Shown piece by piece: positions 1,353 through 25,418 of a DNA stretch of 27,060 bases. The position numbers and the translations under genes are program-made. The stretch is from a virus (lineage: Duplodnaviria > Heunggongvirae > Uroviricota > Caudoviricetes), in the IMG/VR virus record IMGVR_UViG_2681813321_000031, one strand, 5' to 3'. The notes below the pieces were generated by a model. It searched no databases and was not told the DNA's origin. It saw nothing but the letters and a program-made list of their open reading frames with translations. The first letter of the stretch is position 1, and each line of letters starts with the position of its first letter.

Positions 1353-2348
1353 TTACCCAAGCACGCCGGTTGCAAAGGCGTGATCAAGAAAATGAAAAAT
1401 TAAATCAACCTGGGAACCATGCTTTTCTTCGAATGCCAGCGGATCCGCATGAAGCTCGTTGTGATGTTCCCGACACAGCGGTAGTGTGAAAATATCGTGG
1501 GATTTTGTTCCCATTCCACCCTGACCGTGGCCTATCAGGTGGTGGGCATCATCAGCAGGCTTTCCGCAACATGCGCACGGCTGCGTCTTAACCCAGCGCG
1601 TGTACTTTTCATTAACCCAGCGGCGACGTTTTGGGCGTAACATAAAAGACTCCGGCGACTCCGGATCCACTTTCAGCGCCAGCACCTTTTTCGCCTTATC
1701 CTGGATGATGCTGGTGGCAGTAACCGAAGGCACAAGGTCACTTTCCCGGGTAACAGACGGCACAACAGGCTTCGGTAATCTCAGTGCCTTACGGGCTGCA
1801 CTTTCCGATAAGGCATCCGCCAGATCATTACGAATCAGCCACCAGCACAGTTCCGGCATTGTCACAACGTGACTGTCGTCAAAACCGAGCTCCCGACGCA
1901 CAACAGACAACACCCAGCGGGCACAGTTATCCGTTGCCATTGATTCCAGCCGTTCCGTGAACTGATCGCGCAGCTGGTTATCGCAGTGCCAGCACAGACG
2001 GATCGCGCCCGGAGCGTGTCGCATTGTGGTCATGTTCTCGCTGTGCCAGTTGGAATGAGGCCACTGACAGCCCTTTTCACGAAGTAACCAGCTTTCAAGA
2101 CATTCCACGCCACCAGCACGACGGATCACTGCCTCATTGCGGAACACGGCCCGAACGGCAGGATCATCCGCCAGCGGTTGTGATGCCGCCGGAACGGCAC
2201 CACTGGCAAAAGATGAATAACGTTCCGGCTCAGGCTCCAGCAGGACACGCCCCTGCATAAACAGGGGCATCAGCTCTGAACCGGGCCTGAACAATACGAT
2301 CCCCATACGCGGGGCAATTTCAGGGGTCAGTAGTGCTCTCACGGTCAC
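1353..2348 (-). CDS. DUF968-like prophage protein with C-terminal HNH-type Cys/His motif
   Basis: 331-aa ORF; C-terminus CACCGKPADDAHHLIGHGQGG...LPLCREHHNELH is a CxxC...HH...C..HH HNH-like zinc-finger signature; resembles YdfU-type prophage proteins. The 5' part of the gene lies inside the 7.55-kb repeat unit. Confidence 0.75.
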   Translation of the reverse strand: MTVRALLTPEIAPRMGIVLFRPGSELMPLFMQGRVLLEPEPERYSSFASGAVPAASQPLADDPAVRAVFRNEAVIRRAGGVECLESWLLREKGCQWPHSNWHSENMTTMRHAPGAIRLCWHCDNQLRDQFTERLESMATDNCARWVLSVVRRELGFDDSHVVTMPELCWWLIRNDLADALSESAARKALRLPKPVVPSVTRESDLVPSVTATSIIQDKAKKVLALKVDPESPESFMLRPKRRRWVNEKYTRWVKTQPCACCGKPADDAHHLIGHGQGGMGTKSHDIFTLPLCREHHNELHADPLAFEEKHGSQVDLIFHFLDHAFATGVLG

Positions 2349-2393
2349 CTCAGCGAACGGTATTGCATGAACGCAGAAGAAAAAATTCAGCCA

Positions 2394-2651
2394 TCACGCA
2401 GTAAACTCCTTCACCAGTATTTCAAACTGGCTTACCTGGCCTTCCAGTTCCGCCACGCAATCCACCAGCTCATCCACCGCCTTTTGTGTGCGGTGTTTTG
2501 CCAGCAGCAGATCACGCAGCGCCGGAGTAAGCTGCTTGCGGAGCGTATCCTTTGCCACGCTCGTTTTTTCCATCTGTTCAGCACAACGAAGCATCTCCTG
2601 CGCCTGCCGACGAAGTTGTTCCGGTGAAACAGTGATTGCTCTGTTGTTCAA
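2394..2651 (-). CDS. hypothetical protein (85 aa, predicted helical)
   Basis: ORF overlaps the dnaB-like stop by 4 nt (translational coupling); no family recognised. Confidence 0.55.
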   Translation of the reverse strand: MNNRAITVSPEQLRRQAQEMLRCAEQMEKTSVAKDTLRKQLTPALRDLLLAKHRTQKAVDELVDCVAELEGQVSQFEILVKEFTA

Positions 2652-4048
2652 AATAAACGCTCCGTTTTACTGCCCGACATGCGGTTATTGCTGTATCTGC
2701 GCGGATTGCCCGGCGTCATGGGTGTGGAAAGAACCCGGGCACTCTCCTGGTCCACAGGCAGAAAATGTCCGTTATGAAAACGCCGGTAAATGGTCCCGAG
2801 CGTGCCATTACGCTGTTTCGTGATGTTGATTTCTGCTATGCCTCTGGCCTGAGTTTCCGGGTTGTATACCTCATCCCTGTAAAGCATCAGAATGATGTCG
2901 GCATCCGCCTCGATTTCCCCGGAGTTTTTCAGGTCCGAGTTCATTGGGCGTTTATTGGGTCTGGATTCCACGCCGCGGGAGAGCTGGCTCAGAGCAATCA
3001 GCGGAAAACCGCCGGATTTTGCCAGGCTTTTAAGTCCCTTTGAGATTTCCCCCACAGCAAGGTCGTGACGCCCCGTGCTGCGGGTTTTAATCAGGCCGAG
3101 GTAATCGACCACAACCAGCGCCGTTTCCGGGTGTTTCATCCGGTGGTGCTTCGTGGTTGCACATATCTCATCAATGGTCAGGTTTGCCTGGTCCACCATC
3201 CAGATATTACGCCCCGTCATTCGTCCCACGCCCTGCGAGAAACGCGCCCAGTCTTCATCTTCAAAACGGGCAACAGACTTAAGACGGGATACCGGCATTC
3301 CACCGGCAGCAGACACCATACGTTCACCAATCTGGATGTTCGCCATCTCCATGGTGAACAGAAGCACGCCATGCCCCTGCTCAGTCACCTTGTCGATGAT
3401 GTCCAGCGCAAGTTCGGTTTTCCCCATCGAAGGACGGGCGGCAATGAATACCAGGTCTCCGGGCTCCATACCGCCCGTTTTTGCGTCCAGTTCATCAATA
3501 CCGGTCATCAGCGCCCTGGATTTCTCCAGTCCCTGATTGCGGCATTCAACACGGTCGACCACTTCCGGAAGGACATCATCAATGTGAACCGGCTGAATGA
3601 CGCCCTTTCCGGTCGACAGTGAGGCCATCATGTTCTGCGCATCCTTCAGGGCATCCTCGGCTGCTTCACAGGTATACGCATCACGTAAATTCTGTAATGC
3701 TTCAGTCAGTGTTTTTTCTGCATCGCGCAGTGCGGCATTGCGCCGCAACGCTGCGACATAGTGCTCCAGTGAAGACTTCACCCAGGTTTTGCGTCCGGTG
3801 TCGGTAATCACCGGGGCAAGTTCCGGCATCTCATTGCACAGCAGTACGGGGTCAATGACGCCGAATATGCGAGCCTGTCTGCAAATCCCCGCGTAAATAT
3901 CCCGGTACTGACGCACAAAAAATACATCCGCCGGAAGTGTGGCCAGAATATCCATCACTTCCGGATCGGCCCCACGCAGAAAAAACGCACCGATGACAGC
4001 GCCTTCCAGGTCATCGTTACGCCATGCCGGGGTGTTCTGGCTGGTCAT
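2648..4048 (-). CDS. DnaB-family replicative DNA helicase
   Basis: 466 aa; Walker A GARPSMGKTELALDI, FTMEMANIQ and SQLSRGVESR regions match the DnaB RecA-like domain; 4-nt overlap with the upstream loader gene. Confidence 0.95.
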   Translation of the reverse strand: MTSQNTPAWRNDDLEGAVIGAFFLRGADPEVMDILATLPADVFFVRQYRDIYAGICRQARIFGVIDPVLLCNEMPELAPVITDTGRKTWVKSSLEHYVAALRRNAALRDAEKTLTEALQNLRDAYTCEAAEDALKDAQNMMASLSTGKGVIQPVHIDDVLPEVVDRVECRNQGLEKSRALMTGIDELDAKTGGMEPGDLVFIAARPSMGKTELALDIIDKVTEQGHGVLLFTMEMANIQIGERMVSAAGGMPVSRLKSVARFEDEDWARFSQGVGRMTGRNIWMVDQANLTIDEICATTKHHRMKHPETALVVVDYLGLIKTRSTGRHDLAVGEISKGLKSLAKSGGFPLIALSQLSRGVESRPNKRPMNSDLKNSGEIEADADIILMLYRDEVYNPETQARGIAEINITKQRNGTLGTIYRRFHNGHFLPVDQESARVLSTPMTPGNPRRYSNNRMSGSKTERLF

Positions 4049-4953
4049 GCGGCAACACCTCCGATACGAGAACGGTAGCTGGGCCAGTTAAACGACAACC
4101 AGTTGCGCCCGCCATCGGTGATCCTGTCGGCAATCCGGGGACTGATGAACGCCCACAATTCTTCCGGTGAAAGGTTGCTGATCAGGATAGTTGGCAAAAT
4201 ACCCTCATACCGGGCATTGATAATTTCCTGCAAAATGGCCATTTCAGCCGCACTGCCAAACTGAACGCCGACTTCGTCGACAATCAGCAAATCCAGTGAC
4301 GCATAATGCTCAATGACGTCATCCGCTGTTTTTTCACTGTCATTCCGCCAGCAGTTTTTCACAGCCCGGGTAAGGCGCATCACGTCGGTGATCTCCACAC
4401 TGGCCAGATAGTTACGGATGATGTGTTTTGCCATTGATACCGCCAGATGATTTTTCCCGGTACCGCAACTGCCGGTCATAACAAGACTGGTACCGTTCTC
4501 CAGCATATCTGGCCAGTTCTCCGCATAGCGGCGACAGGCCGCAAGATTTCTGGCTGCGTCAGGATTAACCTCCAGATAATTATCAAACTCGCAGTCCCGA
4601 AAACGCAGAGCAATTCCGGCGTTATCAGTCAGTTCTTCCGCCTTGAGGGACGACAGTTCCATGGTCAAATCACTGGCCTCAGCGATCAAGCAGTCAGGGC
4701 AGCATGAAATTTTTTCTCTGTCCTCGCCATTACGATCGATCCACACCAGTATATGCGTACGATATTTACCGTGTTTTTCGCAATATCCGCGACCTTCACG
4801 CATCAGGCAGGAACGATAAGGCCATGGCTTTTCGCCCTTCTGAGCAAATGCAATCTCTGCCCGTAACTCATCCATTTCTGCCCGTAACTCATCCATTCGC
4901 GCCTGTAGTCTTGTTTGTTTCTCACGTTGGTCAATCGTCATCATCGCTGTCAC
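4045..4953 (-). CDS. DnaC/IstB-like AAA+ helicase loader with N-terminal Cys-rich region
   Basis: 302 aa; Walker A GSCGTGKNHLA, Walker B LLIVDEVG; N-terminal Cys/His cluster (C...CEKHGK...CCPDC). Confidence 0.85.
   Translation of the reverse strand: MTAMMTIDQREKQTRLQARMDELRAEMDELRAEIAFAQKGEKPWPYRSCLMREGRGYCEKHGKYRTHILVWIDRNGEDREKISCCPDCLIAEASDLTMELSSLKAEELTDNAGIALRFRDCEFDNYLEVNPDAARNLAACRRYAENWPDMLENGTSLVMTGSCGTGKNHLAVSMAKHIIRNYLASVEITDVMRLTRAVKNCWRNDSEKTADDVIEHYASLDLLIVDEVGVQFGSAAEMAILQEIINARYEGILPTILISNLSPEELWAFISPRIADRITDGGRNWLSFNWPSYRSRIGGVAA
4858..4899. repeat. 21-bp in-frame tandem duplication inside the loader gene
   Basis: ctgcccgtaactcatccattt / ctgcccgtaactcatccattc; encodes MDELRAE-MDELRAE in the N-terminal coiled region. 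Confidence 0.8.
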
Positions 4954-4954
4954 C

Positions 4955-5947
4955 TCAGAATGTCAATTTGTTACTGGATTTACCGAATTTGTCCGACATG
5001 GCTCCCAGGCCAGCCAGGACATCGACCTGTCGCTGTCGCCCACCTCCGTGAGCGGCTGGCTGTTGCCAGTAATCTTCGAAGTGACGATCGGGTCCAAAGA
5101 ACGTCGCAGCCTGCTTCACGAACTGTGTGCCGATATTTCCTGTAGCACGTACCCAGGCGGCATACCGCTTCACGCCATCAAGCATGGTCTCCGGTTTTAT
5201 TCCCTCCCTGATACGGGCTTTCCAGGCTTTGAAGGCTGCTGACTTGGAATTGCCACCAGCACGTTTGGGATATTCCTGCCAGGCCTGTTCAAATTCCGGT
5301 GAATATTCCTGTCGGGCAGAACGCGCTGGCGCAGACGCGTCAGCGGATGCATCAATAGTGTTTTTAGTCTCCGTTGTAATCTCTGTAGTAATCTCTGTAT
5401 TTGTATCAACATTCGGCGTATCCCCTGTTCCGTTATGACGTCGGGGGGTGTTCCGTTTTAACGTAATAGCTGTATCGCTGATTGCATTATTGCTGTTACT
5501 TTCTGGCGAAACAGAAGAAGGTGTGGTGATGGCCGCAATTGCCTGTGGGTTGATCCCGACAAACAAAATATTGCTGCATTTCACCCCATCGAGCATTTCC
5601 ACCGTGCGTAAATCCAGAGTAATAAACCCTGCATCGCGCAGACGCTTCAGCGCATCTGCGGTTTCCCTTTTCCCGAAACCAAACTGCTCAGCAAACGCCT
5701 GGTAGCTTCTTTGCAGTTTGTCGCCCTGAAAACGCTTGCGATATCCCAGCAACGCTCCGGTGTGCTCATCCCTGACCTCTGTCGGGCGGTACCAGTAAAC
5801 GATCTCTGAAAGCAGAGCGATAGCCGTCGCATCCGGACGCCCACTGGGTAGTCGAATATATTTCCACCAGTTCGCAGGTGTAACATTGCCGGAAATATTA
5901 ATTTGACCAATAGCCATAACTTCCGGTGTGGGGGCGTAACGGCTCAT
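4955..5947 (-). CDS. putative replication initiator (O-like / replisome organizer)
   Basis: 330-aa ORF directly upstream of the loader and helicase genes; conserved N- and C-terminal blocks separated by a low-complexity T/E/I-rich linker. Assignment is by position plus weak motif resemblance. Confidence 0.55.
   Translation of the reverse strand: MSRYAPTPEVMAIGQINISGNVTPANWWKYIRLPSGRPDATAIALLSEIVYWYRPTEVRDEHTGALLGYRKRFQGDKLQRSYQAFAEQFGFGKRETADALKRLRDAGFITLDLRTVEMLDGVKCSNILFVGINPQAIAAITTPSSVSPESNSNNAISDTAITLKRNTPRRHNGTGDTPNVDTNTEITTEITTETKNTIDASADASAPARSARQEYSPEFEQAWQEYPKRAGGNSKSAAFKAWKARIREGIKPETMLDGVKRYAAWVRATGNIGTQFVKQAATFFGPDRHFEDYWQQPAAHGGGRQRQVDVLAGLGAMSDKFGKSSNKLTF
5375..5398. repeat. 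12-bp direct repeat (gtaatctctgta x2) in the initiator linker
   Basis: Encodes TEITTEITTE; candidate iteron-like repeats by analogy with lambda ori lying inside O. Confidence 0.4.
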
Positions 5948-6243
5948 ACAACCTCCTTCCGCGGCATGAGAATTGTGTAGCCACGCGCAGGTTGTAGTCT
6001 GGCTTTTGCATCAATAGTAAGCGTTGCAATTTTTCGGATATGAAGATAACCAGCTCTTTCCAGTGCCAGGGTTTCCCTGAATATCGCTTGCTTAGAACAA
6101 CAGCAGAAATCAGCAAGCACCTGATGATCAATAACTCTCTCGCCTTCACCGTCTGAAGAACCCGACATCAAAACACGCAACATAATCAGGCGCTGAATCG
6201 GGTTATCGAAAGCACATCCGCACACAAACTGAAAACAGTTCAC
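5944..6243 (-). CDS. hypothetical protein, possible winged-helix DNA-binding
   Basis: 99-aa ORF coupled to the initiator start by a 4-nt overlap. Confidence 0.45.
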   Translation of the reverse strand: MNCFQFVCGCAFDNPIQRLIMLRVLMSGSSDGEGERVIDHQVLADFCCCSKQAIFRETLALERAGYLHIRKIATLTIDAKARLQPARGYTILMPRKEVV

Positions 6244-6464
6244 GCCACACCTCCCAGACGCTTAAACATTTTTCCAGACAGAAATACCGCCAGAGGGTAA
6301 CTGATGGTGTAGCTACGCCCCTGTAGTTCGCACACGACTTTCTGGCTTTCAGCGTTGACTAGGCAAACCCGCAGAACGTGACCGTTGCTGGTGGCGAACC
6401 ACTGCCCCACACGGGGGCAACGGTTGTATCGGTGATACAGGGAATTAACGATGTGGCGGATCAT
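6240..6464 (-). CDS. hypothetical protein (74 aa)
   Basis: ORF in the operon, 4-nt overlap with the downstream gene. Confidence 0.4.
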   Translation of the reverse strand: MIRHIVNSLYHRYNRCPRVGQWFATSNGHVLRVCLVNAESQKVVCELQGRSYTISYPLAVFLSGKMFKRLGGVA

Positions 6465-6655
6465 GGACGCACCTCCACCGTAGTTACGTATTTAACCGGG
6501 CTACCTTTCATTGAGATGGTTTCACACATCTCTGCCGCTTTCAGTTCCGCTGTTTTTCTGGATTTATAGCGACGGTGCCAGACAGATACATCCGTGCGAA
6601 CTGATACATCGTTTCTGTATTCCGTAGTGGAGATGATGATTTCGTAACTAATCAT
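6461..6655 (-). CDS. hypothetical protein (64 aa)
   Basis: ORF in the operon, coupled to the neighbours. Confidence 0.4.
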   Translation of the reverse strand: MISYEIIISTTEYRNDVSVRTDVSVWHRRYKSRKTAELKAAEMCETISMKGSPVKYVTTVEVRP

Positions 6656-7203
6656 GGGCGAACCTCCTTGTCAGAACCATTCAGCCTGGAATCAACAAGT
6701 GCAGCGCCAAAAACAGCATCACCAACACGGTCGTACAGTTTGCTAGCCAGCGGAGATTCAACGGCCTTAAGCATTGGATAAAGCTGGCTTGTCCAGATTT
6801 GATGGATTTCACGCAAATGCAGGTATACGCCTCTGGCGTTTCGTGCGACAGCTGACATATCAACCGCGTCAGCACCAGATAAATTCTTCTCCATCTGGTT
6901 AAAGGCGTTGATGTATGCCTCTTTGAACCGGGCTGCACGTTTGCCAGTAAAGCCCATAGCAAGGAACGCGAAGCCATCGCGGGTGATTTGATAGCAAGGT
7001 AGTTTGCGGCCTGTGCAATCGGTGTAATCACTGGGCTGAAAATTCAGCTCAGTGAATTCAACAGAGCACTCAAGCGTCTGGATTTTTTGAATAACGTTTT
7101 TGTGCTGCTTGCAGAAATATTCGGCAACGGCCAAAGAAGAGGTAACAGCCTTCCCATGGATAACATCAATTTTAGGGTGAGTTTGGGTAGGGGTGGTTGC
7201 CAT
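6652..7203 (-). CDS. rha: phage regulatory protein Rha (core, 183 aa from ATG 7201-7203; track ORF extends to 7500)
   Basis: VTSSLAVAEYF...FTELNF...GRKLPCYQITRDGFAFLAMGFTGKRAARFKEAYINAFN matches the Rha N-terminal domain. ATG at 7201-7203 has a GAGGA Shine-Dalgarno 7 nt upstream. The longer 282-aa ORF reads through an upstream terminator hairpin and the structured element. Confidence 0.8.
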   Translation of the reverse strand: MATTPTQTHPKIDVIHGKAVTSSLAVAEYFCKQHKNVIQKIQTLECSVEFTELNFQPSDYTDCTGRKLPCYQITRDGFAFLAMGFTGKRAARFKEAYINAFNQMEKNLSGADAVDMSAVARNARGVYLHLREIHQIWTSQLYPMLKAVESPLASKLYDRVGDAVFGAALVDSRLNGSDKEVRP

Positions 7204-7260
7204 AGTGACATCCTCATGTGCGAATTTTGAAAACTCACCACATGGGACGCCAATCACAGA

Positions 7261-7339
7261 GGTGGTGAGACGTACAGGGTTGGCGTAACCGGTCGCACAT
7301 GACCCCGGCGCATCTTTCGATGCCCCTGCACGCCCCACC
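7261..7339 (-). ncRNA. candidate structured cis-regulatory RNA in the rha leader (P1 16-bp helix enclosing P2 and P3 hairpins)
   Basis: Minus-strand GGUGGGGCGUGCAGGG (7339-7324) pairs with CCCUGUACGUCUCACC (7279-7264): 13 Watson-Crick + 3 G-U pairs, which become A-C mismatches on the plus strand. P2 GCAUC-GAAA-GAUGC at 7323-7310. Copy 2 has the same P1 and a P2 of CCAAC-UUCG-GUUGG. Confidence 0.45.
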
Positions 7340-7366
7340 ATAATTTGGATGTGAGGAAACGTGCGC

Positions 7367-7389
7367 AAAAAAACCGCTGAAGCGCGGTT
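7367..7389 (-). terminator. intrinsic terminator-like hairpin + U7 between the rha-like gene and rha
   Basis: Minus-strand AACCGC-GCUUCA-GCGGUU followed by UUUUU; stem and U tract are conserved in copy 2 while the loop and flanks diverge. Confidence 0.45.
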
Positions 7390-7583
7390 ATGCGCATGTG
7401 CGAATTTCAGGACGCCAATCCCGGCACCCGCTTTATAAGGTGCGGAGACAGTGTAACGTCCCGAAATTGCAGAATCAATATTTGGTCTTGAAATGATCAT
7501 ATAGCTGCTGATATCTTTAGAACTGTTCTTGGATGTTTCGGAGCCGTTTTATGCGAAACAGCTCCCCGTTATTGATGTTGAGT

Positions 7584-7609
7584 GAGCCGGGTTACTCCCG
7601 GCTTTTTTT
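7584..7609 (+). terminator. plus-strand intrinsic terminator overlapping the stop codon of the 235-aa gene
   Basis: GAGCCGGG-UUACU-CCCGGCUU plus a 7-T tract on the plus strand only (no U tract on the minus strand); implies a plus-strand transcript convergent with the operon. Confidence 0.45.
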
Positions 7610-8316
7610 CACCGCTGCCAACCAATAACCTGAAATAACCCCATTTTCGGGTGATACCAGCGAGTCCCTCGCGGTTCTGCTTCCTCCATAACCCGATAAA
7701 AAGCAGCCATAAACGGTTCCACAGCAACAATTGCGCGACGTGACAACAATCCGTCCGGCGTCATGAACTCATGGGTGTCTGTAGGAATTTGATAGGCGTT
7801 CACCAGATTGCGGCATTTATCATCTGACAAACCGGTTTTTGCTTTCAGTTGGCGATATCCGGCATAGCCCTCACGAATAGTGCCCTTTTTAATTTGCTCG
7901 ACTGTTTCAGCAACGTGGCTGACTTTTTCTTCCACCTGAGTGATCCGTTTCTGTTGGCGAACGGCTTCAAGAGCCATCGCGGCAACCATTTCGATTTCGC
8001 TCATTGGCTTACGGATCTGTTCTTCCAGTTCGCGCCAGCGATCTACCAGGCGAGCAGTGAATTCAGGACAGAGCTGTGCGACGACAATGATGCTGTCGCG
8101 CTTACCTCGTTCACCTTCGAATACATACGCGCTAGAAAATCGGCGAGGCCCAAGTGATTGTTTATTCTCAATTTCCACAGTCTGTGGAAATTGGATGATT
8201 CCCTTTTTAGCCAGTGTTTCAATAGTTCTCTTAACACTATCTGGTCGGCTTCCCACCAGCTCTGCGATCTCAACGCTGGTCATGGATGCTTTGCCGTTAA
8301 AAATTGCGGTGTTCAT
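7609..8316 (-). CDS. Rha/antirepressor-like phage regulatory protein (235 aa) at the cII position
   Basis: N-terminal TSVEIAELVGSRPDSVKRTIETL resembles the Rha-type N-terminal DNA-binding motif; ATGA overlap with the upstream Cro-like gene. Confidence 0.55.
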   Translation of the reverse strand: MNTAIFNGKASMTSVEIAELVGSRPDSVKRTIETLAKKGIIQFPQTVEIENKQSLGPRRFSSAYVFEGERGKRDSIIVVAQLCPEFTARLVDRWRELEEQIRKPMSEIEMVAAMALEAVRQQKRITQVEEKVSHVAETVEQIKKGTIREGYAGYRQLKAKTGLSDDKCRNLVNAYQIPTDTHEFMTPDGLLSRRAIVAVEPFMAAFYRVMEEAEPRGTRWYHPKMGLFQVIGWQR

Positions 8317-8540
8317 TGTTGGTCTCCTGTGGGCTTGTCATCTTCTGTATTCGCTAGACTTGGGTGTGTATATGGAATGCTCGGATCCAGATGACAAAGA
8401 ATGGCAACATCCTCCGGAACACCTCGCGTTTTCCACTTTCCAACACCTTGACTGCCACGAGGCCTTCCTTTCTTTGGGAACCTGCGACCAATAGCGGCAT
8501 TGGTTTTAAATTGAATTTTTAATATTTCATAAAGGGTCAT
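8313..8540 (-). CDS. Cro/DicC-like small DNA-binding protein (75 aa)
   Basis: First gene divergent from cI across an operator-rich intergenic region; small and basic; ...FKTNAAIGRRF... resembles the Cro/DicC HTH region. Largely positional inference. Confidence 0.5.
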   Translation of the reverse strand: MTLYEILKIQFKTNAAIGRRFPKKGRPRGSQGVGKWKTRGVPEDVAILCHLDPSIPYTHPSLANTEDDKPTGDQQ

Positions 8541-8651
8541 TCTTTAGTCTCACACCAGATACTTTGTTATTCAACGATGTTAACCACAGGAATCCAAAGT
8601 ATCAAGAAATTCTGTTACTTTAGTATCAACAGCCATGAGAGGAGAAGAAAA
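8541..8651. promoter_or_regulatory. OR-like operator/promoter region between the cro-like gene and cI
   Basis: Three copies of the core AGTATCA / GATACT (8558-8564 inverted; 8598-8604 and 8622-8628 direct) in 110 bp; AGAGGAGAA Shine-Dalgarno before the cI ATG. Confidence 0.5.
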
Positions 8652-9308
8652 ATGAAGTCTTTAGGTGAACGTCTCATCAACGCACGGCAAAAAGCTGGGT
8701 TAACACAAGATGCGTTGGCTAAAAAAGCTGGGATCACCAGAGTTGCAATCAGTAAAGCCGAGCAAGGCCTTACAAAAAGTTTCAACGGTGACACCCTTTT
8801 TAAAGTTGCAGCTGCACTGCGGTGTTCACCGCAGTGGCTTCAGAACGGAGATGAAAAAGATAAGCATTGGGAAAATAATGTTAAGAGCTGCCCACAGAGA
8901 GACACAGCACACTCTTACCCTGTAATTAACTGGGTTCAGGCAGGATTATTCGCAACTTCTGGTGATGACTACAACATGTATGATCAGGATAATTGGAGGC
9001 ATTCTGTAAAATACGCTGGTGAGAGGGGGTTCTGGCTGGAAGTGCACGGAGACTCAATGACTTCGCCCGTAGGAATAACATTTCCTGAAGGAATGTCGAT
9101 CCTTGTCAACCCAGATAAAGAAGTTTTTTCAGGGTGTTACGTCATCGCCAGAAAAAAATCTACCAATGAAGCAACATTCAAAAAATATATTTCTGACATG
9201 GGAAAGGCGTTTCTAAAGCCCCTTAATCCACAATATCCAATCATAGAAATGGACAATGATTGCGAAATAGTAGGTGTTGTGGTTGATGCCAGGTGGGATA
9301 TTTTCTGA
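8652..9308 (+). CDS. CI-like prophage repressor (XRE HTH + S24 LexA-like peptidase domain)
   Basis: MKSLGERLINARQKAGLTQDALAKKAGITRVAISKAEQG is an HTH; C-terminal ...LEVHGDSMTSP...CYVIARKK... shows the S24 Ser/Lys dyad pattern; strong RBS. Track ORF starts 75 nt earlier at an alternative codon. Confidence 0.9.
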   Translation: MKSLGERLINARQKAGLTQDALAKKAGITRVAISKAEQGLTKSFNGDTLFKVAAALRCSPQWLQNGDEKDKHWENNVKSCPQRDTAHSYPVINWVQAGLFATSGDDYNMYDQDNWRHSVKYAGERGFWLEVHGDSMTSPVGITFPEGMSILVNPDKEVFSGCYVIARKKSTNEATFKKYISDMGKAFLKPLNPQYPIIEMDNDCEIVGVVVDARWDIF

Positions 9309-9411
9309 CCAGACACAAAACACAAAAAGAAACCAAAGTATCAAAAATCACTTGCCACACCTTGATACCTTAGTTACCATAAAACAAAGTTCGTAACTGA
9401 GGTATCATCCC
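9309..9411. promoter_or_regulatory. OL-like operator/promoter region downstream of cI
   Basis: The same GTATCA core recurs three times (9337-9343, 9363-9369 inverted, 9401-9407), forming an inverted pair AAGTATCAA...TTGATACCT. Confidence 0.4.
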
Positions 9412-9771
9412 ATGATCAATAAAGCTACAACTCTTGACTGTCTCGAAGAACTGAAAAACCTCGGCAGCCTCATTACACTAATAGCAAAAGCAACACCTGA
9501 TGCTACGCTCTCTAGCGATATAGAGTCATGCGCAGGACTGGCATGGGATATGACAAATAGCATATCCAGAAAGCTATCGTCAGCAATGCTTTTACAGAAC
9601 AAAAATTCTGCAATCAACAACCGTCTTCGCACCCAACGCGAAGCCTGCGGCTTAACAACCGCCGAACTCGCCAGGCTGCTCGATCTCGATGAAGAAATTA
9701 TCATCCAGTGGGAGAGCGGAGAGTATGAACCAACTATCAGTATGCTTATCCCACTGGCAAAAGATGAATAA
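9412..9771 (+). pseudogene. 3'-truncated copy of the XRE HTH gene, cut at the tandem-duplication junction
   Basis: Identical to the first 116 codons of 16969..17472, then diverges after the microhomology ccactggcaaa (9751-9761) into sequence from the DUF968 gene, ending ...LAKDE. Confidence 0.6.
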
Positions 9772-9944
9772 CGTTCCGGCTCAGGCTCCAGCAGGACACG
9801 CCCCTGCATAAACAGGGGCATCAGCTCTGAACCGGGCCTGAACAATACGATCCCCATACGCGGGGCAATTTCAGGGGTCAGTAGTGCTCTCACGGTCACC
9901 TCAGCGAACGGTATTGCATGAACGCAGAAGAAAAAATTCAGCCA

Positions 9945-10202
9945 TCACGCAGTAAACTCCTTCACCAGTATTTCAAACTGGCTTACCTGGCCTTCCAGTT
10001 CCGCCACGCAATCCACCAGCTCATCCACCGCCTTTTGTGTGCGGTGTTTTGCCAGCAGCAGATCACGCAGCGCCGGAGTAAGCTGCTTGCGGAGCGTATC
10101 CTTTGCCACGCTCGTTTTTTCCATCTGTTCAGCACAACGAAGCATCTCCTGCGCCTGCCGACGAAGTTGTTCCGGTGAAACAGTGATTGCTCTGTTGTTC
10201 AA
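9945..10202 (-). CDS. hypothetical protein (85 aa), copy B
   Basis: Identical to 2394..2651. Confidence 0.55.
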   Translation of the reverse strand: MNNRAITVSPEQLRRQAQEMLRCAEQMEKTSVAKDTLRKQLTPALRDLLLAKHRTQKAVDELVDCVAELEGQVSQFEILVKEFTA

Positions 10203-11599
10203 AATAAACGCTCCGTTTTACTGCCCGACATGCGGTTATTGCTGTATCTGCGCGGATTGCCCGGCGTCATGGGTGTGGAAAGAACCCGGGCACTCTCCTG
10301 GTCCACAGGCAGAAAATGTCCGTTATGAAAACGCCGGTAAATGGTCCCGAGCGTGCCATTACGCTGTTTCGTGATGTTGATTTCTGCTATGCCTCTGGCC
10401 TGAGTTTCCGGGTTGTATACCTCATCCCTGTAAAGCATCAGAATGATGTCGGCATCCGCCTCGATTTCCCCGGAGTTTTTCAGGTCCGAGTTCATTGGGC
10501 GTTTATTGGGTCTGGATTCCACGCCGCGGGAGAGCTGGCTCAGAGCAATCAGCGGAAAACCGCCGGATTTTGCCAGGCTTTTAAGTCCCTTTGAGATTTC
10601 CCCCACAGCAAGGTCGTGACGCCCCGTGCTGCGGGTTTTAATCAGGCCGAGGTAATCGACCACAACCAGCGCCGTTTCCGGGTGTTTCATCCGGTGGTGC
10701 TTCGTGGTTGCACATATCTCATCAATGGTCAGGTTTGCCTGGTCCACCATCCAGATATTACGCCCCGTCATTCGTCCCACGCCCTGCGAGAAACGCGCCC
10801 AGTCTTCATCTTCAAAACGGGCAACAGACTTAAGACGGGATACCGGCATTCCACCGGCAGCAGACACCATACGTTCACCAATCTGGATGTTCGCCATCTC
10901 CATGGTGAACAGAAGCACGCCATGCCCCTGCTCAGTCACCTTGTCGATGATGTCCAGCGCAAGTTCGGTTTTCCCCATCGAAGGACGGGCGGCAATGAAT
11001 ACCAGGTCTCCGGGCTCCATACCGCCCGTTTTTGCGTCCAGTTCATCAATACCGGTCATCAGCGCCCTGGATTTCTCCAGTCCCTGATTGCGGCATTCAA
11101 CACGGTCGACCACTTCCGGAAGGACATCATCAATGTGAACCGGCTGAATGACGCCCTTTCCGGTCGACAGTGAGGCCATCATGTTCTGCGCATCCTTCAG
11201 GGCATCCTCGGCTGCTTCACAGGTATACGCATCACGTAAATTCTGTAATGCTTCAGTCAGTGTTTTTTCTGCATCGCGCAGTGCGGCATTGCGCCGCAAC
11301 GCTGCGACATAGTGCTCCAGTGAAGACTTCACCCAGGTTTTGCGTCCGGTGTCGGTAATCACCGGGGCAAGTTCCGGCATCTCATTGCACAGCAGTACGG
11401 GGTCAATGACGCCGAATATGCGAGCCTGTCTGCAAATCCCCGCGTAAATATCCCGGTACTGACGCACAAAAAATACATCCGCCGGAAGTGTGGCCAGAAT
11501 ATCCATCACTTCCGGATCGGCCCCACGCAGAAAAAACGCACCGATGACAGCGCCTTCCAGGTCATCGTTACGCCATGCCGGGGTGTTCTGGCTGGTCAT
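10199..11599 (-). CDS. DnaB-family replicative helicase, copy B
   Basis: Identical protein to 2648..4048. Confidence 0.95.
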   Translation of the reverse strand: MTSQNTPAWRNDDLEGAVIGAFFLRGADPEVMDILATLPADVFFVRQYRDIYAGICRQARIFGVIDPVLLCNEMPELAPVITDTGRKTWVKSSLEHYVAALRRNAALRDAEKTLTEALQNLRDAYTCEAAEDALKDAQNMMASLSTGKGVIQPVHIDDVLPEVVDRVECRNQGLEKSRALMTGIDELDAKTGGMEPGDLVFIAARPSMGKTELALDIIDKVTEQGHGVLLFTMEMANIQIGERMVSAAGGMPVSRLKSVARFEDEDWARFSQGVGRMTGRNIWMVDQANLTIDEICATTKHHRMKHPETALVVVDYLGLIKTRSTGRHDLAVGEISKGLKSLAKSGGFPLIALSQLSRGVESRPNKRPMNSDLKNSGEIEADADIILMLYRDEVYNPETQARGIAEINITKQRNGTLGTIYRRFHNGHFLPVDQESARVLSTPMTPGNPRRYSNNRMSGSKTERLF

Positions 11600-12504
11600 G
11601 CGGCAACACCTCCGATACGAGAACGGTAGCTGGGCCAGTTAAACGACAACCAGTTGCGCCCGCCATCGGTGATCCTGTCGGCAATCCGGGGACTGATGAA
11701 CGCCCACAATTCTTCCGGTGAAAGGTTGCTGATCAGGATAGTTGGCAAAATACCCTCATACCGGGCATTGATAATTTCCTGCAAAATGGCCATTTCAGCC
11801 GCACTGCCAAACTGAACGCCGACTTCGTCGACAATCAGCAAATCCAGTGACGCATAATGCTCAATGACGTCATCCGCTGTTTTTTCACTGTCATTCCGCC
11901 AGCAGTTTTTCACAGCCCGGGTAAGGCGCATCACGTCGGTGATCTCCACACTGGCCAGATAGTTACGGATGATGTGTTTTGCCATTGATACCGCCAGATG
12001 ATTTTTCCCGGTACCGCAACTGCCGGTCATAACAAGACTGGTACCGTTCTCCAGCATATCTGGCCAGTTCTCCGCATAGCGGCGACAGGCCGCAAGATTT
12101 CTGGCTGCGTCAGGATTAACCTCCAGATAATTATCAAACTCGCAGTCCCGAAAACGCAGAGCAATTCCGGCGTTATCAGTCAGTTCTTCCGCCTTGAGGG
12201 ACGACAGTTCCATGGTCAAATCACTGGCCTCAGCGATCAAGCAGTCAGGGCAGCATGAAATTTTTTCTCTGTCCTCGCCATTACGATCGATCCACACCAG
12301 TATATGCGTACGATATTTACCGTGTTTTTCGCAATATCCGCGACCTTCACGCATCAGGCAGGAACGATAAGGCCATGGCTTTTCGCCCTTCTGAGCAAAT
12401 GCAATCTCTGCCCGTAACTCATCCATTTCTGCCCGTAACTCATCCATTCGCGCCTGTAGTCTTGTTTGTTTCTCACGTTGGTCAATCGTCATCATCGCTG
12501 TCAC
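11596..12504 (-). CDS. DnaC/IstB-like helicase loader, copy B
   Basis: Identical protein to 4045..4953. Confidence 0.85.
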   Translation of the reverse strand: MTAMMTIDQREKQTRLQARMDELRAEMDELRAEIAFAQKGEKPWPYRSCLMREGRGYCEKHGKYRTHILVWIDRNGEDREKISCCPDCLIAEASDLTMELSSLKAEELTDNAGIALRFRDCEFDNYLEVNPDAARNLAACRRYAENWPDMLENGTSLVMTGSCGTGKNHLAVSMAKHIIRNYLASVEITDVMRLTRAVKNCWRNDSEKTADDVIEHYASLDLLIVDEVGVQFGSAAEMAILQEIINARYEGILPTILISNLSPEELWAFISPRIADRITDGGRNWLSFNWPSYRSRIGGVAA

Positions 12505-12505
12505 C

Positions 12506-13498
12506 TCAGAATGTCAATTTGTTACTGGATTTACCGAATTTGTCCGACATGGCTCCCAGGCCAGCCAGGACATCGACCTGTCGCTGTCGCCCACCTCCGT
12601 GAGCGGCTGGCTGTTGCCAGTAATCTTCGAAGTGACGATCGGGTCCAAAGAACGTCGCAGCCTGCTTCACGAACTGTGTGCCGATATTTCCTGTAGCACG
12701 TACCCAGGCGGCATACCGCTTCACGCCATCAAGCATGGTCTCCGGTTTTATTCCCTCCCTGATACGGGCTTTCCAGGCTTTGAAGGCTGCTGACTTGGAA
12801 TTGCCACCAGCACGTTTGGGATATTCCTGCCAGGCCTGTTCAAATTCCGGTGAATATTCCTGTCGGGCAGAACGCGCTGGCGCAGACGCGTCAGCGGATG
12901 CATCAATAGTGTTTTTAGTCTCCGTTGTAATCTCTGTAGTAATCTCTGTATTTGTATCAACATTCGGCGTATCCCCTGTTCCGTTATGACGTCGGGGGGT
13001 GTTCCGTTTTAACGTAATAGCTGTATCGCTGATTGCATTATTGCTGTTACTTTCTGGCGAAACAGAAGAAGGTGTGGTGATGGCCGCAATTGCCTGTGGG
13101 TTGATCCCGACAAACAAAATATTGCTGCATTTCACCCCATCGAGCATTTCCACCGTGCGTAAATCCAGAGTAATAAACCCTGCATCGCGCAGACGCTTCA
13201 GCGCATCTGCGGTTTCCCTTTTCCCGAAACCAAACTGCTCAGCAAACGCCTGGTAGCTTCTTTGCAGTTTGTCGCCCTGAAAACGCTTGCGATATCCCAG
13301 CAACGCTCCGGTGTGCTCATCCCTGACCTCTGTCGGGCGGTACCAGTAAACGATCTCTGAAAGCAGAGCGATAGCCGTCGCATCCGGACGCCCACTGGGT
13401 AGTCGAATATATTTCCACCAGTTCGCAGGTGTAACATTGCCGGAAATATTAATTTGACCAATAGCCATAACTTCCGGTGTGGGGGCGTAACGGCTCAT
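12506..13498 (-). CDS. putative replication initiator (O-like), copy B
   Basis: Identical protein to 4955..5947. Confidence 0.55.
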   Translation of the reverse strand: MSRYAPTPEVMAIGQINISGNVTPANWWKYIRLPSGRPDATAIALLSEIVYWYRPTEVRDEHTGALLGYRKRFQGDKLQRSYQAFAEQFGFGKRETADALKRLRDAGFITLDLRTVEMLDGVKCSNILFVGINPQAIAAITTPSSVSPESNSNNAISDTAITLKRNTPRRHNGTGDTPNVDTNTEITTEITTETKNTIDASADASAPARSARQEYSPEFEQAWQEYPKRAGGNSKSAAFKAWKARIREGIKPETMLDGVKRYAAWVRATGNIGTQFVKQAATFFGPDRHFEDYWQQPAAHGGGRQRQVDVLAGLGAMSDKFGKSSNKLTF

Positions 13499-13794
13499 AC
13501 AACCTCCTTCCGCGGCATGAGAATTGTGTAGCCACGCGCAGGTTGTAGTCTGGCTTTTGCATCAATAGTAAGCGTTGCAATTTTTCGGATATGAAGATAA
13601 CCAGCTCTTTCCAGTGCCAGGGTTTCCCTGAATATCGCTTGCTTAGAACAACAGCAGAAATCAGCAAGCACCTGATGATCAATAACTCTCTCGCCTTCAC
13701 CGTCTGAAGAACCCGACATCAAAACACGCAACATAATCAGGCGCTGAATCGGGTTATCGAAAGCACATCCGCACACAAACTGAAAACAGTTCAC
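13495..13794 (-). CDS. hypothetical protein, copy B
   Basis: Identical to 5944..6243. Confidence 0.45.
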   Translation of the reverse strand: MNCFQFVCGCAFDNPIQRLIMLRVLMSGSSDGEGERVIDHQVLADFCCCSKQAIFRETLALERAGYLHIRKIATLTIDAKARLQPARGYTILMPRKEVV

Positions 13795-14015
13795 GCCACA
13801 CCTCCCAGACGCTTAAACATTTTTCCAGACAGAAATACCGCCAGAGGGTAACTGATGGTGTAGCTACGCCCCTGTAGTTCGCACACGACTTTCTGGCTTT
13901 CAGCGTTGACTAGGCAAACCCGCAGAACGTGACCGTTGCTGGTGGCGAACCACTGCCCCACACGGGGGCAACGGTTGTATCGGTGATACAGGGAATTAAC
14001 GATGTGGCGGATCAT
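13791..14015 (-). CDS. hypothetical protein, copy B
   Basis: Identical to 6240..6464. Confidence 0.4.
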   Translation of the reverse strand: MIRHIVNSLYHRYNRCPRVGQWFATSNGHVLRVCLVNAESQKVVCELQGRSYTISYPLAVFLSGKMFKRLGGVA

Positions 14016-14206
14016 GGACGCACCTCCACCGTAGTTACGTATTTAACCGGGCTACCTTTCATTGAGATGGTTTCACACATCTCTGCCGCTTTCAGTTCCG
14101 CTGTTTTTCTGGATTTATAGCGACGGTGCCAGACAGATACATCCGTGCGAACTGATACATCGTTTCTGTATTCCGTAGTGGAGATGATGATTTCGTAACT
14201 AATCAT
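14012..14206 (-). CDS. hypothetical protein, copy B
   Basis: Identical to 6461..6655. Confidence 0.4.
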   Translation of the reverse strand: MISYEIIISTTEYRNDVSVRTDVSVWHRRYKSRKTAELKAAEMCETISMKGSPVKYVTTVEVRP

Positions 14207-14754
14207 GGGCGAACCTCCTTGTCAGAACCATTCAGCCTGGAATCAACAAGTGCAGCGCCAAAAACAGCATCACCAACACGGTCGTACAGTTTGCTAGCCA
14301 GCGGAGATTCAACGGCCTTAAGCATTGGATAAAGCTGGCTTGTCCAGATTTGATGGATTTCACGCAAATGCAGGTATACGCCTCTGGCGTTTCGTGCGAC
14401 AGCTGACATATCAGACGTATCGGCACCTGATAAACTCTTCTCCATCAGGTTAAAGGCGTTGATGTATGCCTCTTTGAACCGGGCAGCACGTTTACCAGTG
14501 AAGCCCATGGCAAGGAACGCGAAGCCATCGCGGGTGATTTGATAGCAAGGTAGTTTGCGGCCTGATGCGTCGGTGTATTCACTTAACACAAAATTGTGTT
14601 CAGTAAATTCAGCGGAACATTCGAGGTTTCTAATTCTATCTAAAACCCGCTCATGCCGTTTAGTAAAGTAATTAGCTACTGCAAGAGATGTGGTGACAAC
14701 GCGACCATTGATAATCGTGATTTCAGGGTGAGATTGGGTTGGGAGAGTAGTCAT
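14203..14754 (-). CDS. rha: phage regulatory protein Rha, divergent allele (core from ATG 14752-14754; track ORF extends to 15057)
   Basis: C-terminal half identical to copy A; the N-terminal Rha domain carries many substitutions (e.g. KQHKNVIQKIQTL vs KRHERVLDRIRNL). Confidence 0.8.
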   Translation of the reverse strand: MTTLPTQSHPEITIINGRVVTTSLAVANYFTKRHERVLDRIRNLECSAEFTEHNFVLSEYTDASGRKLPCYQITRDGFAFLAMGFTGKRAARFKEAYINAFNLMEKSLSGADTSDMSAVARNARGVYLHLREIHQIWTSQLYPMLKAVESPLASKLYDRVGDAVFGAALVDSRLNGSDKEVRP

Positions 14755-14814
14755 GGTGACAGCCCCTATGTTGAATTCAATGAACTCACCACCAAGGCTT
14801 TCCACGACCATATA

Positions 14815-14893
14815 GGTGGTGAGACGTACAGGGGTGGAAATACCGGTCAACATAGAACCCGGCCCAACCGAAGTTGGCCCTGCACGCCCCACC
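14815..14893 (-). ncRNA. candidate structured RNA element, copy B (covarying with 7261..7339)
   Basis: P1 strands identical to copy A; P2 is CCAAC-UUCG-GUUGG (plus strand 14864-14877); P3 retains the CCGG...CCGG pairing with a diverged loop. Confidence 0.45.
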
Positions 14894-14924
14894 ATAATTT
14901 GGGCGTAACGATGCTCATGACACG

Positions 14925-14946
14925 AAAAAACCGCATGAGCGCGGTT
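14925..14946 (-). terminator. intrinsic terminator-like hairpin + U tract, copy B
   Basis: Minus-strand AACCGC-GCUCAU-GCGGUU followed by UUUU; same stem as copy A, different loop. Confidence 0.4.
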
Positions 14947-15140
14947 GTGCTCTATATTGAATTTCGGGTTTCCACGCCCGGCACCCGCTTTATAAGGTGC
15001 CTGAGCAGTGTAACGTCCCGGAATTGCAGAATCAATATTTGGTCTTGAAATGATCATATAGCTGCTGATATCTTTAGAACTGTTCTTGGATGTTTCGGAG
15101 CCGTTTTATGCGAAACAGCTCCCCGTTATTGATGTTGAGT

Positions 15141-15166
15141 GAGCCGGGTTACTCCCGGCTTTTTTT
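15141..15166 (+). terminator. plus-strand intrinsic terminator, copy B
   Basis: Identical to 7584..7609. Confidence 0.45.
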
Positions 15167-15873
15167 CACCGCTGCCAACCAATAACCTGAAATAACCCCA
15201 TTTTCGGGTGATACCAGCGAGTCCCTCGCGGTTCTGCTTCCTCCATAACCCGATAAAAAGCAGCCATAAACGGTTCCACAGCAACAATTGCGCGACGTGA
15301 CAACAATCCGTCCGGCGTCATGAACTCATGGGTGTCTGTAGGAATTTGATAGGCGTTCACCAGATTGCGGCATTTATCATCTGACAAACCGGTTTTTGCT
15401 TTCAGTTGGCGATATCCGGCATAGCCCTCACGAATAGTGCCCTTTTTAATTTGCTCGACTGTTTCAGCAACGTGGCTGACTTTTTCTTCCACCTGAGTGA
15501 TCCGTTTCTGTTGGCGAACGGCTTCAAGAGCCATCGCGGCAACCATTTCGATTTCGCTCATTGGCTTACGGATCTGTTCTTCCAGTTCGCGCCAGCGATC
15601 TACCAGGCGAGCAGTGAATTCAGGACAGAGCTGTGCGACGACAATGATGCTGTCGCGCTTACCTCGTTCACCTTCGAATACATACGCGCTAGAAAATCGG
15701 CGAGGCCCAAGTGATTGTTTATTCTCAATTTCCACAGTCTGTGGAAATTGGATGATTCCCTTTTTAGCCAGTGTTTCAATAGTTCTCTTAACACTATCTG
15801 GTCGGCTTCCCACCAGCTCTGCGATCTCAACGCTGGTCATGGATGCTTTGCCGTTAAAAATTGCGGTGTTCAT
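15166..15873 (-). CDS. Rha/antirepressor-like regulatory protein (235 aa), copy B
   Basis: Identical to 7609..8316. Confidence 0.55.
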   Translation of the reverse strand: MNTAIFNGKASMTSVEIAELVGSRPDSVKRTIETLAKKGIIQFPQTVEIENKQSLGPRRFSSAYVFEGERGKRDSIIVVAQLCPEFTARLVDRWRELEEQIRKPMSEIEMVAAMALEAVRQQKRITQVEEKVSHVAETVEQIKKGTIREGYAGYRQLKAKTGLSDDKCRNLVNAYQIPTDTHEFMTPDGLLSRRAIVAVEPFMAAFYRVMEEAEPRGTRWYHPKMGLFQVIGWQR

Positions 15874-16097
15874 TGTTGGTCTCCTGTGGGCTTGTCATCT
15901 TCTGTATTCGCTAGACTTGGGTGTGTATATGGAATGCTCGGATCCAGATGACAAAGAATGGCAACATCCTCCGGAACACCTCGCGTTTTCCACTTTCCAA
16001 CACCTTGACTGCCACGAGGCCTTCCTTTCTTTGGGAACCTGCGACCAATAGCGGCATTGGTTTTAAATTGAATTTTTAATATTTCATAAAGGGTCAT
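15870..16097 (-). CDS. Cro/DicC-like protein, copy B
   Basis: Identical to 8313..8540. Confidence 0.5.
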   Translation of the reverse strand: MTLYEILKIQFKTNAAIGRRFPKKGRPRGSQGVGKWKTRGVPEDVAILCHLDPSIPYTHPSLANTEDDKPTGDQQ

Positions 16098-16208
16098 TCT
16101 TTAGTCTCACACCAGATACTTTGTTATTCAACGATGTTAACCACAGGAATCCAAAGTATCAAGAAATTCTGTTACTTTAGTATCAACAGCCATGAGAGGA
16201 GAAGAAAA
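16098..16208. promoter_or_regulatory. OR-like operator region, copy B
   Basis: Identical to 8541..8651. Confidence 0.5.
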
Positions 16209-16865: not shown

Positions 16866-16968
16866 CCAGACACAAAACACAAAAAGAAACCAAAGTATCA
16901 AAAATCACTTGCCACACCTTGATACCTTAGTTACCATAAAACAAAGTTCGTAACTGAGGTATCATCCC
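16866..16968. promoter_or_regulatory. OL-like operator region, copy B
   Basis: Identical to 9309..9411. Confidence 0.4.
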
Positions 16969-22211: not shown

Positions 22212-22291
22212 GCTGGCCTGATGCAATCGTAACTCTGGGGGTGGTATTCGCAGCAGCGTTTGTTGTGTTCTCGATTTGTCGATGGGGATAA
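22208..22291 (+). CDS. candidate 27-aa hydrophobic micropeptide
   Basis: MSWPDAIVTLGVVFAAAFVVFSICRWG; ATG overlaps the DUF551 stop (ATGA). Too short for the ORF track. Confidence 0.3.
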   Translation: MSWPDAIVTLGVVFAAAFVVFSICRWG

Positions 22292-22295
22292 CCAC

Positions 22296-22538: not shown

Positions 22539-22550
22539 AGAATGAATAAA

Positions 22551-22571
22551 NNNNNNNNNNNNNNNNNNNNN
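22551..22571. other. assembly gap (21 N)
   Basis: Run of n; an ATG (22542) with AAGGAAG Shine-Dalgarno opens an ORF that runs straight into the gap. Confidence 1.
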
Positions 22572-23623: not shown

Positions 23624-23628
23624 ATGGA

Positions 23629-23662: not shown

Positions 23663-23685
23663 GGGGAGGAGAGGCAGGGAAATAG

Positions 23686-24200
<515 letters not shown>

Positions 24201-25159: not shown

Positions 25160-25163
25160 CCAC

Positions 25164-25406: not shown

Positions 25407-25418
25407 AGAATGAATAAA

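Follow-up and report, generated by a model that had tools for sequence, protein, structure and literature searches.

A long Rha reading frame across an IsrK-C4-type RNA immunity leader in a lambdoid prophage

The 27,060-nucleotide (nt) stretch of Caudoviricetes DNA analysed here (IMG/VR record IMGVR_UViG_2681813321_000031; hereafter the window) contains two copies of a gene for a Rha-family regulator. In both copies the open reading frame (ORF), of 282 and 284 amino acids (aa) respectively in the ORF list, extends about 100 codons upstream of the Rha ATG, as a preliminary description of this DNA had reported. Does Rha carry a variable N-terminal extension overlapping RNA structure, or is the extension an untranslated leader? 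The preliminary description had put these two as alternatives, and each half turned out to be partly right: the region is an RNA regulatory leader, yet its reading frame is maintained. The extension is an RNA immunity leader that is very probably translated as well. With moderate confidence, we favour reading the long ORF as a nested gene that runs over this leader, of the eta/kil type known from the satellite phage P4.

RNA elements of the leader and their alleles

The extension coincides with a system of a known kind, in which a promoter, an IsrK small RNA, a C4-type antisense RNA and the a2 and b2 target sites of C4 precede the Rha gene (Table 1). Gathering scores in Rfam are 50 for isrK (RF01394), 45 for C4 (RF01695) and 46.7 for c4-a1b1 (RF03163), and the C4 match is full-length (model positions 1-87 of 87). 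The RF03163 family, described as "a1, b1 targets of C4 antisense RNA", gave no match at its gathering score on the window; it overlaps the isrK matches in relatives, Gifsy-1 and P4, scoring at or above the gathering score in five relatives and in Gifsy-1 (48.1 bits) and just below it in P4 (44.1 bits). In copy A, IsrK is composed of a 5' hairpin, a1 (UUGGCG, 7418-7413) and b1 (UCGCACAUG, 7403-7395), and its 3' end is the intrinsic-terminator-like hairpin already noticed in the preliminary description, located by the terminator scan at 7389-7372 with a T run at 7373-7367 (seven T in copy A, six in copy B). The C4 of copy A shows a long closing stem, hairpin 1, a b' loop (UCAUGUGCGA, 7302-7293) and a' (CGCCAA, 7285-7280), and the predicted fold of the 254-nt leader has a z of -4.4. 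In the minus-strand segment 7255-7205, the predicted fold also pairs the a2 region with the region of b2 and the Shine-Dalgarno (SD) sequence in a local hairpin, so that the Rha SD may be hidden even without C4.

The isrK and C4 pair was found directly 5' of Rha homologues in 11 genome loci from several enterobacterial genera, and homologous leaders are also present in many records of Stx-converting phages. The promoter block is kept in relatives that have unrelated sequence further upstream, at a location equivalent to those of the Gifsy-1 isrK promoter and of the P4 promoter internal to eta. Its spacing is as in the Gifsy-1 promoter, for which a +1 at 34316 reproduces the published orf45 start codons at nt 107 and 119. 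The four peptide blocks that had been singled out as conserved are indeed present in both copies, and they are conserved because the promoter and the RNA stems underlie them: MIISRPNIDSAI corresponds to the upstream flank and the -35 box, PYKAGAG to the 5' hairpin of IsrK, and IMVGRAG and PVRLTT to the 5' and 3' arms of the C4 closing stem.

Table 1. Features of the leader and of the Rha gene in the two copies, in window coordinates
Feature	Position	Strand	Details
Predicted constitutive promoter inside long ORF	7450..7478	-	-35 TTGATT 7478-7473, 17-nt spacer, -10 TACACT 7455-7450
IsrK / c4-a1b1 (P4 seqA-type) small RNA, copy A	7367..7443	-	Rfam RF01394, 62.3 bits
IsrK / c4-a1b1, copy B	14924..15000	-	RF01394, 61.6 bits; a1 GUGGAAA, b1 UCAAUAUAG
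C4-type antisense RNA (P4 CI type), copy A	7258..7345	-	Rfam RF01695, 75.1 bits
C4 antisense RNA, copy B	14812..14899	-	RF01695, 82.4 bits; a' UUUCCAC, b' CUAUGUUGA
C4 target sites	7211..7253	-	a2 UUGGCG 7253-7248, b2 UCGCACAUGA 7223-7214, Rha SD GAGGA 7215-7211 overlapping b2
Long ORF copy A, 282 aa	6652..7500	-	ORF list; codons 1-99 leader, codons 100-282 Rha, in one frame
Long ORF copy B, 284 aa, putative heteroimmune allele	14203..15057	-	ORF list, alignment
Short Rha gene, 183 aa, ATG 7203-7201 behind SD GAGGA	6652..7203	-	
Candidate long-form start ATG	7498..7500	-	57 nt 5' of predicted IsrK transcription start
AUG in C4 5' arm, M54 of long ORF, in frame with Rha	7339..7341	-	

The extension upstream of the Rha ATG covers 99 codons in copy A (7500-7204, minus strand) and 101 codons in copy B, where the Rha ATG is at 14754-14752 and the C4-arm AUG at 14895-14893. 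Downstream of it, Pfam PF09669 (Phage_pRha; cut-off 29.9 bits) matches residues 120-205 of copy A with 111.8 bits (E = 2.4e-32) and residues 122-207 of copy B with 105.3 bits; the N-terminus of the window Rha is MATTPTQTHPK. The coding sequence WP_000587264.1 of the Prokaryotic Genome Annotation Pipeline (PGAP) covers the same 849 nt as the long ORF of copy A. In RefSeq, the name "Rha family phage regulatory protein" is given to the 282-aa form and "ash family protein" to related ORFs; the IsrK and C4 RNA genes inside these ORFs are unmarked in either annotation.

The two copies belong to a tandem direct repeat of 7.58 kb (2200-9761 and 9751-17318) with 98% identity. All 170 differences are located within 6863-7464, in the part spanning the leader and the N-terminal Rha domain. 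The remaining ~7 kb are identical, which leaves a cassette of ~600 bp as the only difference between the copies. Such a repeat may have arisen by a very recent duplication in which the cassette was exchanged, or from an assembly that merged two versions of a single prophage. In the leader, it is a1, b1, hairpin 1, b', a', a2 and b2 that differ between the copies; the changes in the a and b sites are concerted, and complementarity is kept: a' CGCCAA pairs with a2 UUGGCG and b' UCAUGUGCGA with b2 UCGCACAUGA in copy A, as a' UUUCCAC pairs with GUGGAAA and b' CUAUGUUGA with UCAACAUAG in copy B. The covarying hairpin that had been described as altering the encoded residues was recovered (GCAUCGAAAGAUGC in copy A, CCAACUUCGGUUGG in copy B) and changes ASKDA to PTSVG. 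Judged by these sites, the two window copies are heteroimmune alleles of the P1/P7 type.

Such alleles are numerous. The a and b sites could be parsed in 88 of the 91 unique leaders of the sample described below, and gave 14 a' alleles, 30 b' alleles and 39 (a', b') combinations. Over the 39 combinations, cognate pairing averaged 7.05 nt for a'-a2 and 10.6 nt for b'-b2, compared to 4.65 and 5.68 nt for non-cognate pairs; overall, the pairing runs were of 6.9-10.6 nt for cognate and 4.3-5.7 nt for non-cognate sites. The swapped cassette (6863-7203 against 14414-14754) also includes the N-terminal DNA-binding part of Rha, so that the RNA specificity sites and this domain travel together. We found also two to three tandem IsrK-C4-gene modules with differing a/b alleles in the loci L188 (1678-2519), L012 (1252-2399), L078 and L127 (three leaders each), in which the next long ORF begins at an ATGA overlap with the preceding gene.

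Maintenance of the reading frame and the Pfam Ash family

The frame was examined in a sample of leaders collected independently of gene calls, from 120 IMG/VR loci with an exact C4 stem together with loci found through the short Rha protein. Over ~273 nt, 79 of the 91 unique leaders are free of stop codons in the long-ORF frame, and only 7 and 1 in the other two frames. Stop codons were then counted among the distinct codon alleles at variable columns, in gap-free length classes. In the 135 nt upstream of C4 (the IsrK part), none of the 249 alleles of the long-ORF frame is a stop, compared to 27 of 503 in the other two frames. C4 itself gave 0/124 against 11/237, and the segment from the C4 end to the Rha ATG gave 0/112 against 18/217 in the 57-nt class and 0/41 against 7/74 in the 60-nt class. 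The open in-frame ORF is, on these allele counts, selectively maintained, and the stop avoidance in the IsrK part lies where only an upstream start could translate. Among the 79 leaders of Rha-type genes (Rha proteins 39-100% identical to the window Rha), 74 have a frame that is open over at least the 135 nt 5' of the C4 AUG and on into the gene. The preliminary description had held that stop codons or frameshifts in close homologues would establish the short form; such breaks are nearly absent and the long form was not refuted.

Length changes in the Rha clade are mostly multiples of three, with one -1/+1 compensation. When all length classes are considered, changes that are not multiples of three stay in frame about as often as chance predicts, and we regard the indel pattern as suggestive of frame selection. 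A protein search with the 99-aa extension, which gave for the most part partial proteins no longer than 175 aa and shows what databases call this ORF, was left out of the frame test because it is biased towards open frames. The supplement of Weinberg et al. 2010 contains the alignments and no remark on overlapping ORFs.

The sequence upstream of the -35 box is a mosaic, with 53 distinct contexts. In 36 of them an in-frame ATG is present 5' of the -35 box, after the last stop, and the corresponding numbers for the other two frames are 1 and 0. An SD-like motif was found at 19 of these 36 ATGs, and many of them overlap the stop of the preceding ORF as ATGA, for example in gacaaGGAGGtgcgtccATGAtt. 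In L188, PGAP annotates a 4-nt overlap between the tandem leader-gene modules.

The peptide encoded by this maintained frame is itself under no selection. The column entropies at codon positions 1, 2 and 3 are 0.62/0.71/0.68 in the IsrK part, 0.55/0.54/0.60 in C4 and 0.87/0.97/0.80 from the C4 end to the ATG, and thus show neither codon periodicity nor a third-position excess of variation in the leader; the Rha coding sequence of the same genomes exhibits a strong periodicity (0.39/0.30/0.90). In the AlphaFold model, calculated with a 51-sequence alignment that is best over the extension, residues 1-109 have a predicted local distance difference test (pLDDT) score of ~30-40 and no secondary structure; since the mean pLDDT of 45.8 is partly due to the shallow alignment over Rha, we take this as weak support.

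The extension nevertheless matches a Pfam family. PF10554 (Phage_ASH) scored 53.8 and 38.4 bits in the two copies, with a cut-off of 26, and residues 16-110 of the long ORF cover the entire model. Its conserved columns are the RNA stems, and as a protein domain it showed no residue-level purifying selection by entropy and no fold predicted by AlphaFold. By these criteria the Pfam Ash family is the RNA leader in translated form. In P4, the ORF formerly annotated as "cI gene product, 137 aa", a part of eta, is a member of PF10554, and the P4 epsilon protein, treated as identical to Ash in one paper, is a PF25738 member. A survey of P4-like satellites took PF10554 as the epsilon profile (PMC8628076), so that at least one survey has used Pfam Ash as an epsilon marker though epsilon is of another family, and its PF10554 hits would mark the immunity leader instead. 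In the P4 record (L190; 7888-8175 and 8168-8584), the PF10554 match is to the "cI, 137 aa" ORF, which covers the CI RNA. In three further loci (L099, L106 and L164; proteins P0015, P0073 and P0074), the leader is fused in frame to Icd-like genes, whose products are named "host cell division inhibitor Icd-like protein" and have a Pfam Ash match.

Comparison with P4, Gifsy-1 and P1

In P4, whose immunity factor is the CI RNA and not a protein, the Rfam models place an isrK/c4-a1b1-like seqA at 8692-8615 and the C4-like CI RNA at 8507-8420. The order and sequence of the elements are homologous to those of the window. Shared by the two are a constitutive promoter in internal position, a seqA hairpin resembling isrK together with a terminator, a C4-like CI RNA, and target sites abutting a GGAGG/GAGG SD ahead of a short gene that begins MATT, ~55 nt after the RNA. 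In P4 this gene is kil, whose start (GGAGG-N7-ATG, MATTLTPSHPEF), 55 nt after CI, is in the place homologous to the short Rha start. Both also have a long ORF that begins 5' of the promoter and stays in frame through all elements: in P4, the open frame extends from ATGATGATG, where the ORF88 stop is overlapped, as far as 8168, and in the window ATG 7500 is 5' of the -35 box and no stop intervenes before the in-frame ATG 7203. The P4 a and b alleles (GUGAGAA and UUCACAGG) occur among the lambdoid leaders as well. The two systems differ in the short gene (a Rha-family regulator in the window, the 65-aa Kil in P4), in the genome setting (a lambdoid prophage early operon, 5' of replication genes, against a P4 satellite) and in the distance from the seqA terminator to CI, which is ~100 nt longer in P4. 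The long-ORF ATG overlaps the ORF88 stop in P4 and is uncoupled in the window; an eta-type coupling is thus absent from the window, where no SD is present and the gap is 108 nt, and present in many relatives through an SD and an ATGA overlap.

The mechanism reported for P4 by Forti et al. 1999 was taken from its account in PMC10111431 and compared with the P4 sequence. In that account, Kil is Eta in truncated form, and the full-length protein is produced from the upstream promoter only and is coupled to the alpA homologue. According to the same source, translation of eta prevents termination, overrides immunity and is functional in cis (PMC10111431). This 2023 paper also described CI and seqA homologues inside genes of the Bro network, which includes Phage_ASH and Phage_pRha (PMC10111431).

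The isrK-orf45-anrP locus of Gifsy-1 contains the same Rfam isrK and C4 elements in the same order as the window. The first orf45 start is the C4 5'-arm AUG found at 7341-7339 in the window, at nt 107 from the isrK +1, and its context AAUUAUGGUGGGG is identical in both. Tagging and start-codon mutants showed that orf45 is translated and that expression of the downstream gene requires this translation (PMC4825925), which is turned on by IsrK supplied in trans (Hershko-Shalev et al. 2016, PMC4825925). The authors also remarked that the nucleotide sequence is conserved and the amino-acid sequence is not (PMC4825925). A processed Gifsy-1 RNA of ~80 nt, STnc1160, corresponds to C4. Unlike the open frame of the window, the Gifsy-1 frame ends at a TGA 6 nt before the orf45 AUG; its C4 has 77 nt and the 3' half is therefore read in another frame. 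The orf45 gene ends at an AUGA overlap with anrP, whereas the window frame runs without stop into Rha. The downstream gene of Gifsy-1 has no detectable relationship to Rha (similar 77-nt leaders, L121 and L084, are in the non-Rha class), and the locus adjoins the Q antiterminator gene, the window module being in the early operon.

In P1 and P7, the C4 RNA of immI has a 5' arm nearly as in the window (AAUUAUGGUGGGGCGUG), and the order is alike, with a1, b1, c4, a2 and b2 directly followed by the first translated gene, icd in P1. The heteroimmune P1 and P7 alleles differ in their a and b sites, as do the window copies. P1 was considered as a second example of the long ORF and was ruled out, since all three frames are closed: its leader has at least two stops in every frame, in contrast to the open leader of the window, and the icd frame closes 33 nt 5' of its ATG, so that no long ORF covers the RNA genes. 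The P1 genes downstream are icd and ant, and not rha.

Proposed mechanism and alternative explanations

On one side of the module is the cI-like repressor region, on the other are the replication genes; the first rha gene is at 7609..8316. By homology, C4 could block expression, and translation could relieve this block, in the following way. Most transcripts from the internal promoter would end at the IsrK terminator and read-through would yield C4, whose a' and b' sequences would pair with a2 and b2 and thereby block initiation of the short Rha. If P1 and P4 are a guide, this pairing would also expose the RNA to termination, leaving Rha and the downstream replication genes silent. IsrK, with a1 and b1 as decoy copies of the target sites, could titrate C4. 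Transcripts coming from upstream in the early operon, which extends from the divergent cI-like repressor gene past the first rha gene, would carry ATG 7500, and ribosomes starting there would traverse the promoter, IsrK, the terminator, C4 and the a2/b2 sites into Rha in one frame. Their transit would unfold the RNA elements and bypass the ribosome-binding site guarded by a2/b2, which would render expression insensitive to the RNA immunity. Selection would then act on the passage of ribosomes and not on the peptide sequence, with upstream transcripts as the source of the long form and the internal promoter driving synthesis of the short one. Given its position between the repressor and the replication genes, the module may gate replication, as the P4 leader gates the alpha gene.

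More tentatively, and with a confidence that falls a little short of even, we propose that the Ash domain of lambdoid Ash-Rha proteins is a by-product of ribosome read-through, in a frame kept open only to override the IsrK/C4 block, and that the dozens of freely recombining a/b specificities constitute a second layer of immunity, based on RNA, next to the cI-like repressor. The cassette data suggest that these phages carry a second immunity specificity which can be swapped as a ~600-bp unit. The eta/kil precedent in P4 dates from 1999. The present analysis adds evolutionary evidence, in the lambdoid Rha clade, for upkeep of a frame without constraint on its peptide; it also assigns Pfam Ash to the RNA leader and shows how far the combinatorial a/b specificity extends. 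By this result, widespread E. coli prophages carry an RNA immunity switch of the P4/P1 type within their early operon, immediately 5' of the replication genes, and the locus offers a clear case in which the act of translation is preserved by evolution and the product is not.

Several observations weigh against the eta/kil-type reading. The internal promoter escaped the consensus promoter scan because only 8 of 12 consensus positions match, and the call therefore rests on conservation and on the homology with Gifsy-1; the transcription start of IsrK is likewise a predicted one, placed by homology. ATG 7500 lacks an SD, as the preliminary description had stated (the preceding letters are cagcagctat, without a purine-rich motif), and lies 108 nt downstream of the preceding gene. 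A coupling through a small ORF ending at the ATGA 7500-7497 was ruled out, as this frame has an earlier stop and no start, and initiation at 7500 may therefore be weak or absent. The argument from the SD-less ATG holds for the window allele only, for which translation from ATG 7500 is proposed by homology. The frame is broken in L011, L013, L058, L111 and one of the three L127 leaders, and of 12 leaders before non-Rha genes 5 are fused and 7 are not. The sampled leaders share descent, so that the pooled stop-allele counts (0/526 in the long-ORF frame against 63/1031 in the other two) are not fully independent events. Finally, the closure of all P1 frames implies that the long-ORF design is not obligatory for C4 systems.

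Part of these observations would be expected if the region were a pure untranslated leader, its open frame inherited from a stop-free ancestor and its conservation acting on the RNA, with the 282-aa coding sequence and Pfam Ash as artefacts. All conserved blocks are indeed RNA or promoter elements, the leader shows no codon periodicity and its peptide no predicted fold, ATG 7500 has no SD, the P1 system works with a leader closed in all frames, and the Ash-matching ORF of P4 covers the CI RNA gene. We consider this quite improbable, because the variable positions of the sampled leaders never give a stop in frame, because indels preserve the frame, and because in-frame ATGs, frequently accompanied by an SD and an ATGA overlap, are provided by upstream contexts that are unrelated to one another; according to PMC10111431, moreover, P4 eta is translated and has its function in cis. 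Another possibility, compatible with the eta/kil-type reading, is a start at the C4-arm AUG 7341-7339, as in Gifsy-1 orf45, the first 53 codons never being translated; as no stop follows this AUG, the product would be a 229-aa Rha with a 46-residue extension. This AUG has no SD and lies within the C4 closing stem. RNase P processes the C4 of P1, and processing at the C4 5' end would remove the AUG. Such a start would also leave unexplained the stop avoidance in the IsrK part (0/249 against 27/503) and the conserved upstream in-frame ATGs, and it is in our opinion unlikely, even though the AUG would be present on internal-promoter transcripts and has the same context in Gifsy-1, where its translation was shown (PMC4825925).

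A genuine folded Ash domain with a function of its own, fused to Rha and overlapping the RNA genes by chance, appears very improbable. The PF10554 scores of 53.8 and 38.4 bits against 26, the many "ash family protein" names in databases and the maintained frame speak for it, but the Pfam match is carried by the RNA stems, the compensatory changes in these stems rewrite the residues and the leader has no third-position bias. Gifsy-1 uses another frame on the same nucleotides, and the pLDDT of ~30-40 without secondary structure was obtained where the alignment coverage is best.

Two minor features of the window were noted. On the plus strand, a terminator-like hairpin with a T run is present at 7584-7604, between the first rha gene and the long ORF; it has no T tail on the minus strand and should not halt the early-operon transcripts. 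A second tandem repeat (21333-24192 and 24201-27060) is 100% identical over 2860 nt, and each of its copies contains a match to the Group II intron family (RF00029, 64.9 bits), at 23627-23713 and 26495-26581.

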